Positions 17,855 through 62,044 of a stretch of DNA of 64,000 nt are shown piece after piece (position 1 is the first letter of the stretch; the number at the start of each line of letters is the position of its first letter). Below the pieces are notes generated by a model. That model was not told the DNA's origin and searched no databases. It was given only the letters and a program-made list of their open reading frames with translations. Position numbers and translations under genes: made by a program. The stretch spans positions 42,532,001-42,596,000 of the forward strand of contig OX597833.1 of assembly GCA_951406725.2 (NCBI GenBank), in the 5' to 3' direction. Source of the DNA: Octopus vulgaris. Its lineage: Eukaryota.

Positions 17855-17939
17855 ATTTATTTTATAGAAGGAGCTTCCTGATGATTTCATTTGAATGAAA
17901 CAGTTCTAGTCCTGTAGAAGCTCCTTCTATAAAATAAAT
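17855..17939 (+). ncRNA. Type I hammerhead ribozyme motif with 23-bp stem I
   Basis: Stem I 17855-17877/17917-17939 perfect; CUGAUGA 17878-84; short stem II (UUC/GAA closed by U.U); GAAA 17897-900; stem III ACAG/CUGU; cleavage triplet GUA ending 17916. Confidence 0.8.
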
Positions 17940-19199
17940 AAATAAATAAATATATATATATATATATATATATATATATATATATATATATATATATACA
18001 TACATACATACATACATTTATACAGGGCAAGCTTCTGAAAAGTTTCCATTCAGCAAATTCCCCACACAAGGTATAACTCGAAGCTATTAGAAGTCACTCG
18101 CCTTATGTACTGTGCAATGGGATTGAAACCAGGGTCCGAACTTTCTAATCAGAGTTATGCTTTCGTATATATCATAAACTAAACAAGTTTTCGTTGCTAC
18201 TCGAGTTACAAGTTTTCTAATGTTTCAGTCATATGAAAGATCGGTCAAAATTTCTAAAGCCTTAGTTTAAATAAAAACATAAACCAACTCTACTCCATGT
18301 GTAGGGTACTATCTTCCTCTTTCGTTTACGAACTGTAACATTTGATTATATATATATATATATATATATATATATATATATGTGTGTGTGTGTGTGTGTG
18401 TGTGGCTTCTGCTATAGCTCCGGGACGACCAATGCCTTGTGAGTTGATTTGGTAGACGGAAACTGAAAGAAGCCTGTCGTATATATGTATATATATATAT
18501 AAGTGTGTGTGTATATGTTTGTGTGTCTGTGTTTGTCCCCCCAGCATTGCTTGACAACCGATGCTGGTGTGTTTACGTCCCCGTCACTAAGCGGTTCGGC
18601 AAAAGAGACCGATAGAATAAGTACTGGGCTTACAAAGAATAAGTCCCGGGGTCGATTTGCTCGACTAAAGGCGGTGCTCCAGCATAGCTGCAGTCAAATG
18701 ACTGAAACAAGTAAAAGAGTAAAAATATATATCGTTAGTAATCTATTTGTTTGATCACGGGAACAATTGCATTGAATTCTACCTTGAGGATAAGTGGCAG
18801 AGTAACTCAAATAGAGTAACGAAAGTGTGACAGTAACACGAACATCTATCACCTTGATGTAAACTTTAGTTAAAATCACTAACATTCAGTGTACGAAACG
18901 AGGTTCAACTATATAAATGACAGGAACAGTCCACTTGTCGGTCACGCACACGATTCTCAGCTGTCCAATTTCACTCACAAGGTTGAGGCGACCTGAGGCA
19001 TTGGCAGAAGACACTAGCTCAAGGTGTCACGCAGTAGTATCGAAATACATTTCACATACTTGCTCGACGTAGATACTCAACCTGCTAGAAATAACAACCG
19101 AATCTCCTTCAAAGTACACATTACCGTCTTAAAAAAAAAGGACACATAGAGAATGTAGTTGTGGATATGCTTAAATTATAGGAATGCTGGATCAGGACT

Positions 19200-20107
19200 A
19201 GTTGGGGTTAAACAACAATAACGCGAAAAAATACATTAAATAATGAAGTCCTCGGCATATTACGTCCGAAAAACAAAAAAAAAAAAAAAAAGAAAACGAT
19301 AGGATCTTTACAAGAACGTTTTGATTTTATATCTGTTGGATTTGGGTCCGACCTGGGGCCAAGTAGTAACAACATAAGAATCGAAAAGACAAGGTGGCGT
19401 GAATATATATGAAAATACATTCTTCACAAGCATATCTTGAATAGTTTAGTTTTCTGTGCACGAAAATATAAACATATATATTGAATATACGTGTGTGCGT
19501 GTATACATATACACATACTATATATATATATATATATATATATATATATATACAGATAGATAGATACTTTGATTTCTGTGTATATATTCTCTCTCTCATA
19601 TATATAAATATGAGAACGGAGTTTCATAGAAATATAGTAATGTTTAGAAACAATTCAGAAGGTAATACCAACCTGTTTTTGATTCTGAAATCCCATTAGG
19701 ATATTATATTAAGCTTTTTTTTTCTGCGATAATATCACATACATAAAAAGAAAAATGAAAACTGTGACAATCGCTTTGTTTTTAAATAATCCATCAATAT
19801 TAACGTTTCAAAATATGTATTGTACATAGTTCTACCGCAGGCGCACATAAAAATATGTATTGCTATATATACACCATATAATTTCATCCATACAAATATA
19901 TATAAATATGTGTAAAGCTTCGGTCAATTCATAGATTTTCTTGGTGGCGTTGAATAGATCGACACCGTTTGAGGTTAATAATTTACTTCTAAGCAAGAAG
20001 AGCGTTATCATTAGCCATTCAAGTAAATTGTTGTTGCTCTCTGTCTCTCTCTCTCTCTTTGCCCGGAAACTATTTATGTCATCTACAGCTGTCACCTTTC
20101 ACCGGTA
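19200..20107. promoter_or_regulatory. Candidate bidirectional promoter / 5' region shared by the zinc-finger and BAG1-like genes
   Basis: Divergent gene orientation; TE-poor and relatively CpG-retaining; (CT)n tract ~20037-20057 and ETS-like CCGGAA at 20063-20068 just upstream of the BAG1 ATG. Confidence 0.4.
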
Positions 20108-20183
20108 ATGTTCAATTTCTTTTCTCTCCTGAACATGTCAACCGGCGTTGTGGAGAATGTCTTAAAGTTAGTTTGTTCTCACG
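20108..20183 (+). CDS. BAG1: BAG1-like exon 1 (MFNFFSLLNMSTGVVENVLKLVCSH-G)
   Basis: ATG 20108 or 20135; donor cacg|GTAAGA at 20184; phase 1 matches exon 2. Confidence 0.8.
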
Positions 20184-58992: not shown

Positions 58993-61378
58993 ATATTTTG
59001 TCCTTTTAAGATTTTGCGTTAACGGGGGTCTAGACACAGTAGCCTCACTACAACCTTCAAAGGCGCTAGATATTATTGATTGTAGTGTATCATTATTATT
59101 ATTGATTGTGGTGTTCTCACCATCTGACATATTTTTATAACAGTTTCTGTTGCTTCAACTTCCGCAGCATCTATTGTATGATTGTGTTCATTTATAAGAC
59201 TGCTTATTGCTTCCTCTAATGTAGTTATATTTGTGATATTTACCACACTTCCAGTAAGTCCTGGGTCCGTTCTCTCTATTTTTATAGAATAAATATCCAT
59301 CATGAACTAAATTTTTCCGTCGTTTTTCTGTTTCTATATATTGAAGAACCATTCTATGGGCTTCAGAGTACTGAAATTTTAACCAGTTTTCTCTTGGAAT
59401 TACGTCAAAACCTCGAAAAAATGCTGAGAATTTTAAAATTGAAAGGTGCTGTTATTGATACATATTGTCCTCCTTAGGAAAAACAAATTGTCATGAAGTG
59501 GTAGTTTGGTCATTAAGAAAAAGAAGTTTATAATTGCTCGTTTAATGCTATCAGTTCTCTCTGTATCTCTCTCTAGTTTTATCTGTAGATAAATTGTTGT
59601 AGATGAATTGTATATGTTGATAAATTGTTGTAGACGAATTCACCTAGAACCTGCCAGGAAGCCAACTTCGGCGACCACAGAGGATAATGCCGACGCTGTG
59701 CACGTTATGATTCTCGAGGGCCGCCAGATTTTAGTTGAAGTCATAGATGTAACTCTGGGGATTTCCCGCGAGAGTTGGTCACATCATCCAGAACATCCTG
59801 GACATTAGAAAGCTTTCCGCAAAGTGGGTACCCAAATGCCTGAACGCATATAAGAAGCGCATCAGAGTGACGATATCAAACGCAATTTTGAACCAGTTTG
59901 CAGTGGGAGAGGCTGATTTTATGGCTCGTTTAGTCACCATGGATGAAACTCGGCTTCGCCGTTATGATCCCCAAACCAAACAGCAATGAATGCAGTGGCC
60001 CTACGACGGTTCACCGCGTCCCAAGAAGTTTCGGACCCAGAAGTCAGCTGGAAAGATTCTGGCTTCAGTGTTCTGGGACAAATACGGAATATTCCTCATA
60101 AAATACTTGCCAAAAGGTCGCACTATCAACGCAGAATACTAGATGTCTCTGTTGGACGAACTGCGTGAAACTTCGAAGCAGAAACGCCGTGGCAAGCTGT
60201 GTTGTGGTGTCCTGTTTTTTTTTTCAGGACAACGTACCAGCGTACACAGCACATGAAACCCTACGGAAAATGCGCAACAATCGCTTCGAATTGCTAGCCC
60301 ACCCACCTTACCCTCTTGATTTGGCTTCCTCGGGAACGAAATAACACTCCGCTTCAGAAGTGATCGGTGCTACAGAGGTTGGAAGCCCAGCCTTCCGAGT
60401 TCTTTTTACGAGGCTTAGTAAAACTGAAGGACCGCTGCAATAATTGTGTGAATCTGAGAGGAGTATATGCTGAATAAAATCATAATTAATTGCACCTCCT
60501 GTATTTTTTAAAACCCAAAGCCAGGAGTTTTTCTGCACTTCCTTGTATATATATATATATATATATATAAAGCTTGGTGACACTAAGGTTAATTAAATAA
60601 AGTCGCAGGAAATGCCATTGAATAAAATATATTCGTGTAAAACTACTTTGAACAAGTTCATGTAGGCTCGGACGTGTGAAAATCTATCATCGCGGAAATA
60701 GTCGCAGGTGGGAAAAACATTCTCTTCCAAGGCAACATATGTGGAAACTCAATGGGCAGTGAATGACGTCCTTACGACGTCATGTATACATACATACGTA
60801 CGTACGTACATAGTATATACGCGTATGTCTATCGTCTGTCTGGGATATATATTAGGTTGTGAGGTGTGTTGGCGTCGATGTCATTCTCGCTCGAGCCAAA
60901 TCTGTCGTTTAATTCTCCTCTTCTCTCAAACAGCAAAATCTAGAGAATTATGAAATTAATCGTTATAAACACGCACAACTGTATATTACAGATACATACA
61001 CACACATACACGTACATACACACACCTACACATATGCATATATGTATATGTGTATGTATATATATATATATATATATATATATATATATATATATATATA
61101 TATATATATATTTATGTATGTATGTATACGTATGTATATTTTTGTGTCTGTGTTTGTCTCCCAACATCGCTTGACAACCGATGCTGATGTGCTTACGTTC
61201 CCGTAACTTAGACATACAAAGAATAAGTCCTGGGGTCGATTTACTCGACTAAAGGCGGTGTTCCAGCATGGCCGTAGTCAAATGACTGAAACAAATAAAA
61301 GAATAAAATAATATATATATATAGATATATATATATATATATATATATATATATATAATAACACAGATGGTCATAGGG

Positions 61379-61457
61379 TCACTACAGCTGTTTCAGACGT
61401 GTTCTTTATTGATAAACAAAATTACATATAAAAAAAAAGTCCGTTTTCTTCAGGTGA
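61379..61457 (-). ncRNA. Minimal type I hammerhead ribozyme motif
   Basis: Minus strand: UCAC-CUGAAGA-AAACG..CGUCU-GAAA-CAGCUG-UA^GUGA; one mismatch in stem II. Confidence 0.7.
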
Positions 61458-61958
61458 ACTGAAAGTAAAATTCAAAATTTAGGATTTTTCACACAAATAG
61501 TATATAATGCGTATTGGCTCTCTCATCTCGGTTACTGCTGAAAGAGTGAATAGGGAACGTTATTTCGAAGTAAATATACATAGTAATAAGTTAATCAACA
61601 CGTTTTAAGTATTGAAATAGAGAGAGGAAAATAAACAGAAATAGAAGGAGAGGAAAAGGAAAATGAAAAAAAAAAAAAAGAAAGAAAAATCTTTCATCCC
61701 ACTTAAGGGATATCAAAGGCTTTCTCTACGGTCTACGGAACGAGATGGTTAGCCATCATTTAATGACAACAAGATAAGCAAGAGAATGCACAATCGTAAA
61801 TAAAATTAATATGAGATGAAATAAATTAAAAATCACCACCAGATAAAAGCAAGAAGGGCGCAAAGCATGGTCATAAAGTAGAAGGCTTGTATATAATCGG
61901 AGTCCATCTTTGGCATCCGTTTTGCTGTTAAATTTTAAGTCTTAAATTTTACTCTTAA

Positions 61959-62044
61959 TTCACATGAAGAAAACTGTTTTTTTACATGATGTAATTGTTT
62001 CGTTCATGAATAAAAAAAAACACGCCTGAAACAGGTGTAGTGAA
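61959..62044 (+). ncRNA. Degenerate hammerhead motif (inverted partner of 61379-61457)
   Basis: UUCAC-AUGAAGA-..-GAAA-CAGGUG-UA^GUGAA; first core C replaced by A. Confidence 0.5.

Follow-up and report, generated by a model that had tools for sequence, protein, structure and literature searches.

Penelope-like elements (PLEs) of the Hydra clade, including Hydra-1_Obim, are described in PMC8557442 as having a single ORF that encodes a reverse transcriptase (RT) together with a GIY-YIG domain at its C terminus, with RW[K/R] and DKT motifs, a CxCx5C linker, CxxC and CxH. These elements carry a hammerhead ribozyme near the 3′ end, target (TA)n tracts, and have an inverted arm with a tail on one side only. 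All of these features are shared by one of the octopus repeat families described below. The same source calls the role of the hammerhead in Hydra-clade elements unclear. More generally, the metazoan PLE hammerheads treated in PMC4209133 have a small or minimal palindromic helix III with an additional base between positions 9 and 10.1. Their copies are mostly single, and some lie near each other on opposite strands.

In Poseidon of Anolis (PMC11167929), the hammerhead and tail occupy the junction between the pseudo-LTR (pLTR) and the ORF, and the target is AT-rich. The tail is defined by two internal RT start sites, both target strands are nicked, and uncleaved RNA is the main RT substrate in vitro. 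Short head-to-head stubs and the points at which they end are absent from the sections of that account consulted here. An inverted pLTR with a one-sided tail is known from PMC3846280. Animal non-LTR retrozymes (PMC7229834; bioRxiv 10.64898/2026.07.22.740005) are non-coding repeats with type I hammerheads present in thousands of copies, and are defined by tandem units and circular RNA. A repeat annotation for octopus counts PLEs, and its main text mentions neither Hydra nor hammerheads (PMC13282606). Outside subscription papers and bioRxiv supplements, PMC8557442 was the only report found of hammerhead-bearing Penelope in octopus, and none was found, within the same scope, that ties head-to-head PLE stubs to transcription start, strong-stop DNA or twin priming.

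The window, which is the whole 64,000-nucleotide stretch of Octopus vulgaris DNA analysed here, contains six type I hammerhead motifs. They belong to four repeat families, termed A to D, and the features are as follows.

17787..17877, minus strand: tail-bearing inverted arm of family A (68-nt tail plus 23 nt), whose outer end abuts (TA)n
17872..17939, plus strand: tail-less arm of family A with the hammerhead, assigned to a Hydra-clade Penelope-like element as its 3′ end
17872-17922, plus strand: family A hammerhead, with core CUGAUGA at 17878-17884, GAAA at 17897-17900 and a predicted cut after 17916
21328..21924, minus strand: copy B1 of family B, AT-rich and from the older subfamily, boundaries approximate
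21565-21666, minus strand: B1 hammerhead, core intact, stem II with an A.C mismatch and stem III no longer palindromic
39456..39672, plus strand: family C, a non-coding element of ~215 bp between (TA)n tracts
39535-39569, plus strand: minimal hammerhead of C, its core here changed at two places (GAAA to GAGA and CG to UG)
55691..56047, minus strand: family B copy B2, a tail-less 3′ end
55853-55947, minus strand: B2 hammerhead, intact, with a 13-bp stem II, CACGUG, cleavage triplet GUC and a predicted cut after 55857
61357..61900, minus strand: family D arm D1, tail-less, ending on (TA)n, 5′ limit approximate
61379-61457, minus strand: D1 hammerhead, core intact, CAGCUG, predicted cut after 61383
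61919..62233, plus strand: tail-bearing arm D2 of family D, lying head-to-head with D1; the tail may reach about 62300
61959-62044, plus strand: D2 hammerhead, decayed (C3 to A, palindrome broken)

All six motifs are confirmed at the positions given by the first-pass annotation, which had listed them as dispersed; they represent five insertions rather than six, because D1 and D2 are both arms of a single insertion. A (at 17872) and B2 (at 55853) are the two intact window copies, B1, C and D2 are decayed, and D1 has an intact core and a weak stem II. The core CUGANGA / GAAA / UH in three helices is found in A, B1, B2 and D1, and is changed in the window copies of C and D2 but unaltered in other copies of their families. 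A strict descriptor finds two cores (B1 and B2) compared to a mean of 0.06 and a maximum of 1 in 100 dinucleotide shuffles. A relaxed scan of the 64-kb window picks D1 and B2 and no motif beyond these. A, C and D2, which pass neither scan, rest on family copies. Rfam gave 86 window matches at E<=5, none of them to hammerhead families. Genome-wide, exact matches to family markers number 3,962 for A, 404 for B, 6,359 for C and 62 for D, compared to 0 for each reversed-pattern control. The proposal of four families in high abundance is supported.

The absence of a Penelope ORF from the window also held in a tblastn search. Insertion into (TA)n tracts, as proposed, is seen at 84 of 89 A loci and 29 of 30 C loci, and a (TAAA)n(TA)n tract directly follows the tail-less A arm in the window, but window copy B2 ends on (TG)n. 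Likewise, the small palindromic stem III attributed to the motifs is found in B, C and D but not in A. Compared to the hammerheads of PMC4209133, B and D share the small palindromic helix III and differ in a long stem II/loop II of about 55-80 nt; C shares both the minimal palindromic helix III and the extra base between 9 and 10.1; and A differs in its non-palindromic helix III (4 bp, 8-nt loop) and its U10.1.U11.1 mismatch, which closes a 3-bp stem II. This mismatch, and the U4C change found in 29 of 51 family C cores, are both on record (PMC3088659). As among the hammerheads of PMC4209133, most octopus copies stand alone, and some lie near one another on opposite strands. The A cleavage triplet is GUA, and stem II is constant among copies while loop II varies. 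The apparent 23-bp stem I of the window copy is the inverted arm, the native stem I being 6 bp. The Hydra-1_Obim hammerhead given in File S2 of PMC8557442 is unlike those of A to D, and that element is of a different family. As a class, the window motifs are ordinary: published work already covers hammerheads at PLE ends, a helix III that is palindromic, insertion into (TA)n and inverted stubs.

The coding capacity of family A is shown at locus L380, where a pLTR is followed by a 713-aa ORF, a UTR of ~2.3 kb, the hammerhead and the tail. The ORF is single and open, comprises an RT with a GIY-YIG domain at the C terminus, and features RWR at 38, DKT at 116, CxCx5C at 567, CxxC at 667 and CxH at 695, in addition to a YIG motif; it matches the Hydra clade as defined in section 11 of PMC8557442. 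In 17 of 20 loci picked by the ORF, the A hammerhead lies 2-3.6 kb downstream, in sense. The family also fits the Hydra layout, with the hammerhead in the pLTR, an inverted or tandem arrangement with a tail, and a (TA)n target. In BLASTP comparisons the A ORF is 32-39% identical to other Hydra-type ORFs of the same genome, and at best 20% identical to Neptune-type ORFs (E 4e-4). Pfam returned no matches for three other PLE peptides. Judged by motifs, layout and within-genome BLASTP, family A is the pLTR or 3′ end of a coding Hydra-clade element.

This element is about 4.5-5.7 kb long, whereas Hydra elements are generally <3 kb (PMC8557442), and unlike those described there it has a microsatellite-like 3′ UTR of 2.3-3.5 kb and thousands of stubs. 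The Hydra-1_Obim protein from the same source appears homologous but divergent when the unaligned sequences are compared by eye. Family A resembles Poseidon, as far as described in PMC11167929, in the placement of its hammerhead and tail, its AT-rich target and a tail that two RT start points would define, but its ORF starts 137 nt after the cut, outside the ribozyme, and its tail is about 70 nt. Neptune-type ORFs downstream of the A tail at one locus (L229) and upstream at another (L295) are unlinked to A. A search of sequencing runs with an A copy gave no RNA dataset among the matches listed. Separately, the A pLTR and ORF are covered in contigs from four runs whose RNA origin is a guess; these are uninformative on expression, start or cleavage and were set aside.

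Family B is joined at one of 30 long loci (L439) to a Hydra-type RT-thumb/GIY-YIG end via a UTR of ~2.8 kb. This UTR is common to other B loci at 84-89%, and the endonuclease end is 40% identical to that of family A (E 7e-28). B has two 3′ end points, and inverted arms at 8 of 30 loci. In stem I, two pairs are altered on both sides (8 cells), which none of 500 shuffles equals, although this reflects a single subfamily split; in stem II, 8 of 19 copies have one pair disrupted. Family D, which has a tail and inverted arms, lies 1.1 kb downstream of a decayed Hydra-type endonuclease end at one of 10 long loci (L400), with the spacer known from one copy, and is probably a Hydra-type end on the strength of this decayed locus. 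Two other neighboring ORFs, a Hydra-type one beside a B copy (L036) and a Neptune-type one beside a D copy (L116), are separate elements that have their own hammerheads and have only the (TA)n target in common with these families. The sequences show the pLTR ends to be those of coding Hydra-type elements in A and, at one locus, in B, and this is likely in D. The Penelope-like origin that the first-pass annotation had proposed is supported. The same annotation had taken the families to be non-coding; the view of them as non-coding, non-autonomous elements fails for A, sits poorly with the Hydra-type ends next to B and D, and fits only C.

Where A copies end was examined in 89 loci, all on contig C1 and chosen for an intact tail. 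The usual stub is ~200 bp, head-to-head, with the tail on one arm; such stubs make up 61 of the 89 loci, and in all 61 the tail-less arm ends at +17 to +27. At their 5′ limits, A arms commonly stop at the first base of the hammerhead (-45): of 122 limits, 74 fall between -46 and -37, including 34 exactly at -45, and the arm ends within a locus are not independent of each other. This pile-up coincides with a 4-6-nt palindrome, and immediately upstream the reference copy is unlike other subfamilies. The position of the edge may thus be off by a few bases, and microhomology accounts for part of it. Upstream of it, TATAAAT starts 29 nt from the -45 edge in 43 of 45 long A copies. Both arms of a stub carry the same subfamily alleles (37 of 37 and 27 of 28 loci). 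An earlier picture of A as a discrete 154-bp element with a cleavage-set junction was rejected by the tail-picked sample, and was an artefact of a search that had used the window copy as its query. In family B no pile-up at the hammerhead edge was seen in 50 loci; there the 5′ limits scatter, and two clusters lie near -120 and +51.

It could be supposed that all four families are independent, non-coding units, either retrozymes or SINE-like, which travel as short RNAs or as circular RNA. The majority of copies are indeed short and without an ORF, animal retrozymes are reported to derive from pLTRs (bioRxiv 10.64898/2026.07.22.740005), and in family C the ends are discrete and 30 of 30 pattern-picked loci lack an ORF. 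This explanation is refuted for A by its contiguity with a coding ORF, and the single loci at which B and D adjoin an ORF count against it as well. Moreover, A junctions vary between copies and contain templated extra bases, which indicates that the stub is formed anew each time and not copied as a unit. Even for C, which resembles the retrozymes of the opening comparison in copy number and lack of coding sequence, the tandem units that define them are absent: no tandem array was found in 60 loci, a second core lies within 1.5 kb in just 2 of them (0.7-0.9 kb away), and copies are nearly always monomeric, with ragged 5′ ends. As an account of all four families, this is improbable. No coding partner for C was found, and by its sequence only this family looks non-autonomous; it is likely to be a short element of that kind, which would depend on borrowed Penelope-like enzymes.

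The -45 pile-up itself might reflect fold-back or microhomology at the stem I palindrome, or antisense self-priming, rather than an RNA 5′ end. Self-priming has been proposed for head-to-head PLE palindromes (PMC3846280), the short palindrome noted above lies at the junction, perfect palindromic junctions recur, and fold-back products with a flipped core were found (L188, L189). But many -45 arms join without use of the palindrome, via gaps or inserted bases, the 122 arm limits include only 10 upstream of -51, and the TATA spacing is invariant although the intervening bases vary, which leaves this reading unlikely, if with some weight. Far less probable is that ribozyme cleavage sets the RT template, with insertions ending at the cut. 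The window copy does have this form, as its inverted arm ends at the cleavage site, a point of stem I microhomology, and 29 exact matches to this junction, from both subfamilies, occur genome-wide. These are under 1% of the 3,962 tail matches, only 3 of the 122 arm limits sampled fall 5 nt or less from the cut site, and stem I complementarity alone gives a 6-nt microhomology there; as the main route, cleavage is refuted.

The preferred explanation, held with good confidence, is that five of the six motifs lie in 5′-truncated ends of (TA)n-targeting Penelope-like retrotransposons, that C is a short and likely non-autonomous element, and that A stubs probably arise by run-off. In family A, a TATA promoter in the pLTR would drive a putative RNA whose first base is that of the hammerhead, and the RT-endonuclease would nick both strands of a (TA)n tract. 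Reverse transcription would begin internally, at one site 23 nt and another 93 nt past the cleavage site, and the two cDNAs would reach about 68 and 138 nt before running off the 5′ end of the RNA. Joining of the cDNA ends would give the common head-to-head stub with its one-armed tail, and run-off is the likely reason why arms halt at the hammerhead's first base. Initiation of RT within the downstream pLTR of a tandem transcript would account for the long copies that bear an ORF. A cut 45 nt into the RNA is predicted for the hammerhead, which may trim or decap the RNA or cut tandem transcripts, but mostly not on the template being copied. The window copy is a rare form in which an arm ends at the cut site.

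A further reading, offered tentatively and at slightly less than even weight, is that family A makes the Penelope equivalent of strong-stop DNA. With the putative RNA beginning on the hammerhead's first base, 29 nt past a TATA box, twin run-off cDNAs in head-to-head union would make up about two thirds of insertions. The ribozyme, being placed to remove the capped first 45 nt, would then be an off-switch on the element's own mRNA and not a maker of RT template.

Hydra-clade elements have been described from few families. In this genome they are numerous, young and diverse, and stubs of theirs would be wrongly classed as non-coding repeats. On a genome scale, A insertions almost never end at the cut, but at the TATA-spaced front edge of the ribozyme, which agrees with the in vitro evidence for copying of uncut RNA reported in PMC11167929. 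If the strong-stop reading is true, thousands of young A copies record run-off in vivo.

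The six hammerhead motifs that the first-pass annotation had noticed in the window were all found there, at the following positions.

17872-17922 (+): motif A
21565-21666 (-): motif B1
39535-39569 (+): motif C
55853-55947 (-): motif B2
61379-61457 (-): motif D1
61959-62044 (+): motif D2

A strict descriptor recovered B1 and B2, compared to a mean of 0.06 cores per sequence in 100 shuffles of the window. Motif A was missed by this descriptor because a U.U mismatch closes its stem II, and C and D2 because of core changes, while D1 was accepted by a relaxed scan. No hammerhead family appears among the 86 Rfam matches for the window. 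Every motif belongs to a dispersed family in this 2.8-Gb genome: exact markers of 22–28 nt gave 3,962 matches for the A tail (a ~70-nt 3′ extension on one arm), 404 for B, 6,359 for C and 62 for D, against 0 for the reversed pattern of each. These counts are minima, particularly for the older families B and D, whose copies share ~80–85% identity. The proposal of about four abundant families holds, and A–D are new families of an already known kind.

The same annotation saw no Penelope ORF in the window and took the families to be non-coding. A tblastn search with 10 peptides from this genome likewise found no Penelope-like match in the window, but the non-coding reading fits only family C and fails for A and B, which are linked to ORFs elsewhere in the genome. 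In long A copies, a microsatellite-like UTR of 2.3–3.5 kb connects the hammerhead to an RT/GIY-YIG ORF. When 20 loci were chosen by ORF alone (12 for long frames and 8 as the top matches of the search), the A hammerhead lay downstream in sense in 17; one of the remaining three has the hammerhead with its ORF motif missed, and two lack it. One locus, L380, is a complete pseudo-LTR (pLTR)-ORF-pLTR unit. Its 713-aa protein contains RWR, DKT, CxCx5C, YIG, CxxC and CxH, which are marks of the Hydra clade in PMC8557442. It shares 32–39% identity with other Hydra-type ORFs of the genome and is barely alignable with the Neptune-type ones. At L289-L290 (G000:C1:13118000-13133900), family A units ~6 kb apart enclose an antisense endonuclease-RT LINE ORF (1,015 aa in L290, partial in L289) in place of a Penelope ORF, which is either a nested insertion or a capture between pLTRs.

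A query with the window copy of A returned near-identical 154-bp units flanked by (TA)n tracts, which suggested a discrete 154-bp element. Variant matches revealed the 23-bp stem as the terminus of an inverted arm, with a native stem I of 6 bp, and the discrete element was rejected on a sample picked by tail alone. That sample took 89 of the first 100 places listed on contig C1, leaving aside 3 neighbours in near-tandem and the final 8 places. As had been proposed for the insertion target, (TA)n adjoins 84 of these 89 loci. A head-to-head layout is present in 61, with the 70-nt tail on one arm and the other arm ending +17 to +27 from the predicted cut site; a further 18 extend at least 90 nt more upstream, with no second arm detected. 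At L003-L004 (G000:C17:54186374-54186748), two identical window-type stubs (short head-to-head insertions) lie in direct tandem with only (TA)n between them.

The 61 stubs provide 122 arm 5′ limits, the two ends of one locus not being independent. Within an alignment uncertainty of a few bases, 74 of the 122 fall at -46 to -37 and 34 exactly at -45, where stem I begins; 10 extend further upstream than -51, and 3 lie no more than 5 nt from the cut site. For the window A junction, which lies at the cut site, 29 exact matches exist (<1% of tail matches). Since A arms seldom stop at the cut site, the usual template is not one defined by cleavage, in agreement with PMC11167929. A palindrome of 4–6 nt sits at -45. 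In 43 of 45 long A copies, TATAAAT starts exactly 29 nt before -45, with variable intervening bases; the usual TATA-to-start spacing is ~30 nt. Subfamily alleles are common to both arms of a locus in 37/37 and 27/28 cases, consistent with a single source RNA or locus but no proof of fold-back. From the sequence we infer a mechanism in which the RNA would start at the hammerhead, reverse transcription would begin on both nicked strands, at two internal positions a short way downstream, after which the pair of run-off cDNAs would be joined to each other.

Copies of family B end at either of two 3′ points, one including a tail of ~120 nt and the other lacking it, and share AT-rich sequence reaching at least 0.9 kb upstream. 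Inverted arms occur in 8 of 30 loci, and no arm-limit edge like that of A was seen. The coding link comes from one of 30 long loci, L439, which has the whole layout: a tail-bearing inverted arm, Hydra-type RT thumb, CxCx5C linker, GIY-YIG, a ~2.8-kb UTR matching other B loci at 84–89%, hammerhead and (TA)n. In the window, the B2 hammerhead is intact and B1 is decayed. The D1 and D2 motifs are a single insertion. They face away from each other across ~470–500 bp of upstream sequence common to other D copies, D1 ending on (TA)n with no tail and D2 bearing the tail, and their arms are ~78% alike. A Hydra origin is likely for this family because a decayed Hydra-type endonuclease end lies 1.1 kb upstream in one of 10 long D loci.

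The family C unit is ~215 bp long. Its 3′ end is fixed and abuts (TA)n in 29 of 30 loci, and its 5′ ends fall within ~90 nt of the core. Neither a head-to-head arm nor a linked ORF was found in any of 30 pattern-picked loci, and the family is likely non-autonomous. No tandem array was found in 60 loci, in which C differs from the tandem arrangement of retrozymes. Because its ACGU helix III is unable to form in the monomer, the C hammerhead would need a dimer (PMC4209133). The window copy, altered at two core positions, is predicted to lack activity.

Between two B subfamilies, 2 of 4 stem I pairs are changed on both sides (8 cells; reached by 0/500 shuffles). Of the stem II pairs, one is disrupted in 8 of 19 copies; the search pattern had set stem III and the 3′ half of stem II in advance. 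The 84 matched A cores differ in loop II but all have the same 3-bp stem II and U.U, and U4C is present in 29 of 51 C cores. Both variants have already been described for hammerheads (PMC3088659).

Other Penelope-like families of the genome also carry hammerheads. Very young Neptune-type elements (L181-L185, L151-L180; open frames of 811–851 aa) have one in the 3′ UTR with a U3-A8 core variant and palindromic CCGG helix III (31 matches), and show an inverted arm and one-sided tail, as in A. Another abundant Hydra-type family (L036, L121-L150, L186-L187), whose endonuclease is preceded by an asparagine-rich insert, has its own type with extended stem II and CAUAUG helix III. The window further contains the following features.

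6237-10766 (-): C2H2 zinc-finger ORF, 1,509 aa, single-exon-like
13746-14114, 56043-56556, 58626-58993 and others: repeat of 184 bp, partly dispersed and partly in short tandems, with no hammerhead by strict or relaxed scan
about 28400-28530 (+): short open frame with a GT donor-like site at its end, presumably resembling a ubiquitin-like domain exon
34805-34910: inverted repeat of ~45 bp, nearly perfect; its Rfam miRNA matches are under the gathering score, so that a fold-back or MITE-like element is probable
52197-53438: broken fragments of non-LTR RT, with an inverted duplication of 140 bp (99%)
57740-58333: MULE transposase fragment (Pfam)
62739-63179: fragment with no Pfam match, which we take to be Tc1/mariner-like

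A literature search found no published account of a TATA-spaced stop at the front edge of the family A ribozyme, and it is this stop that goes beyond cataloguing.
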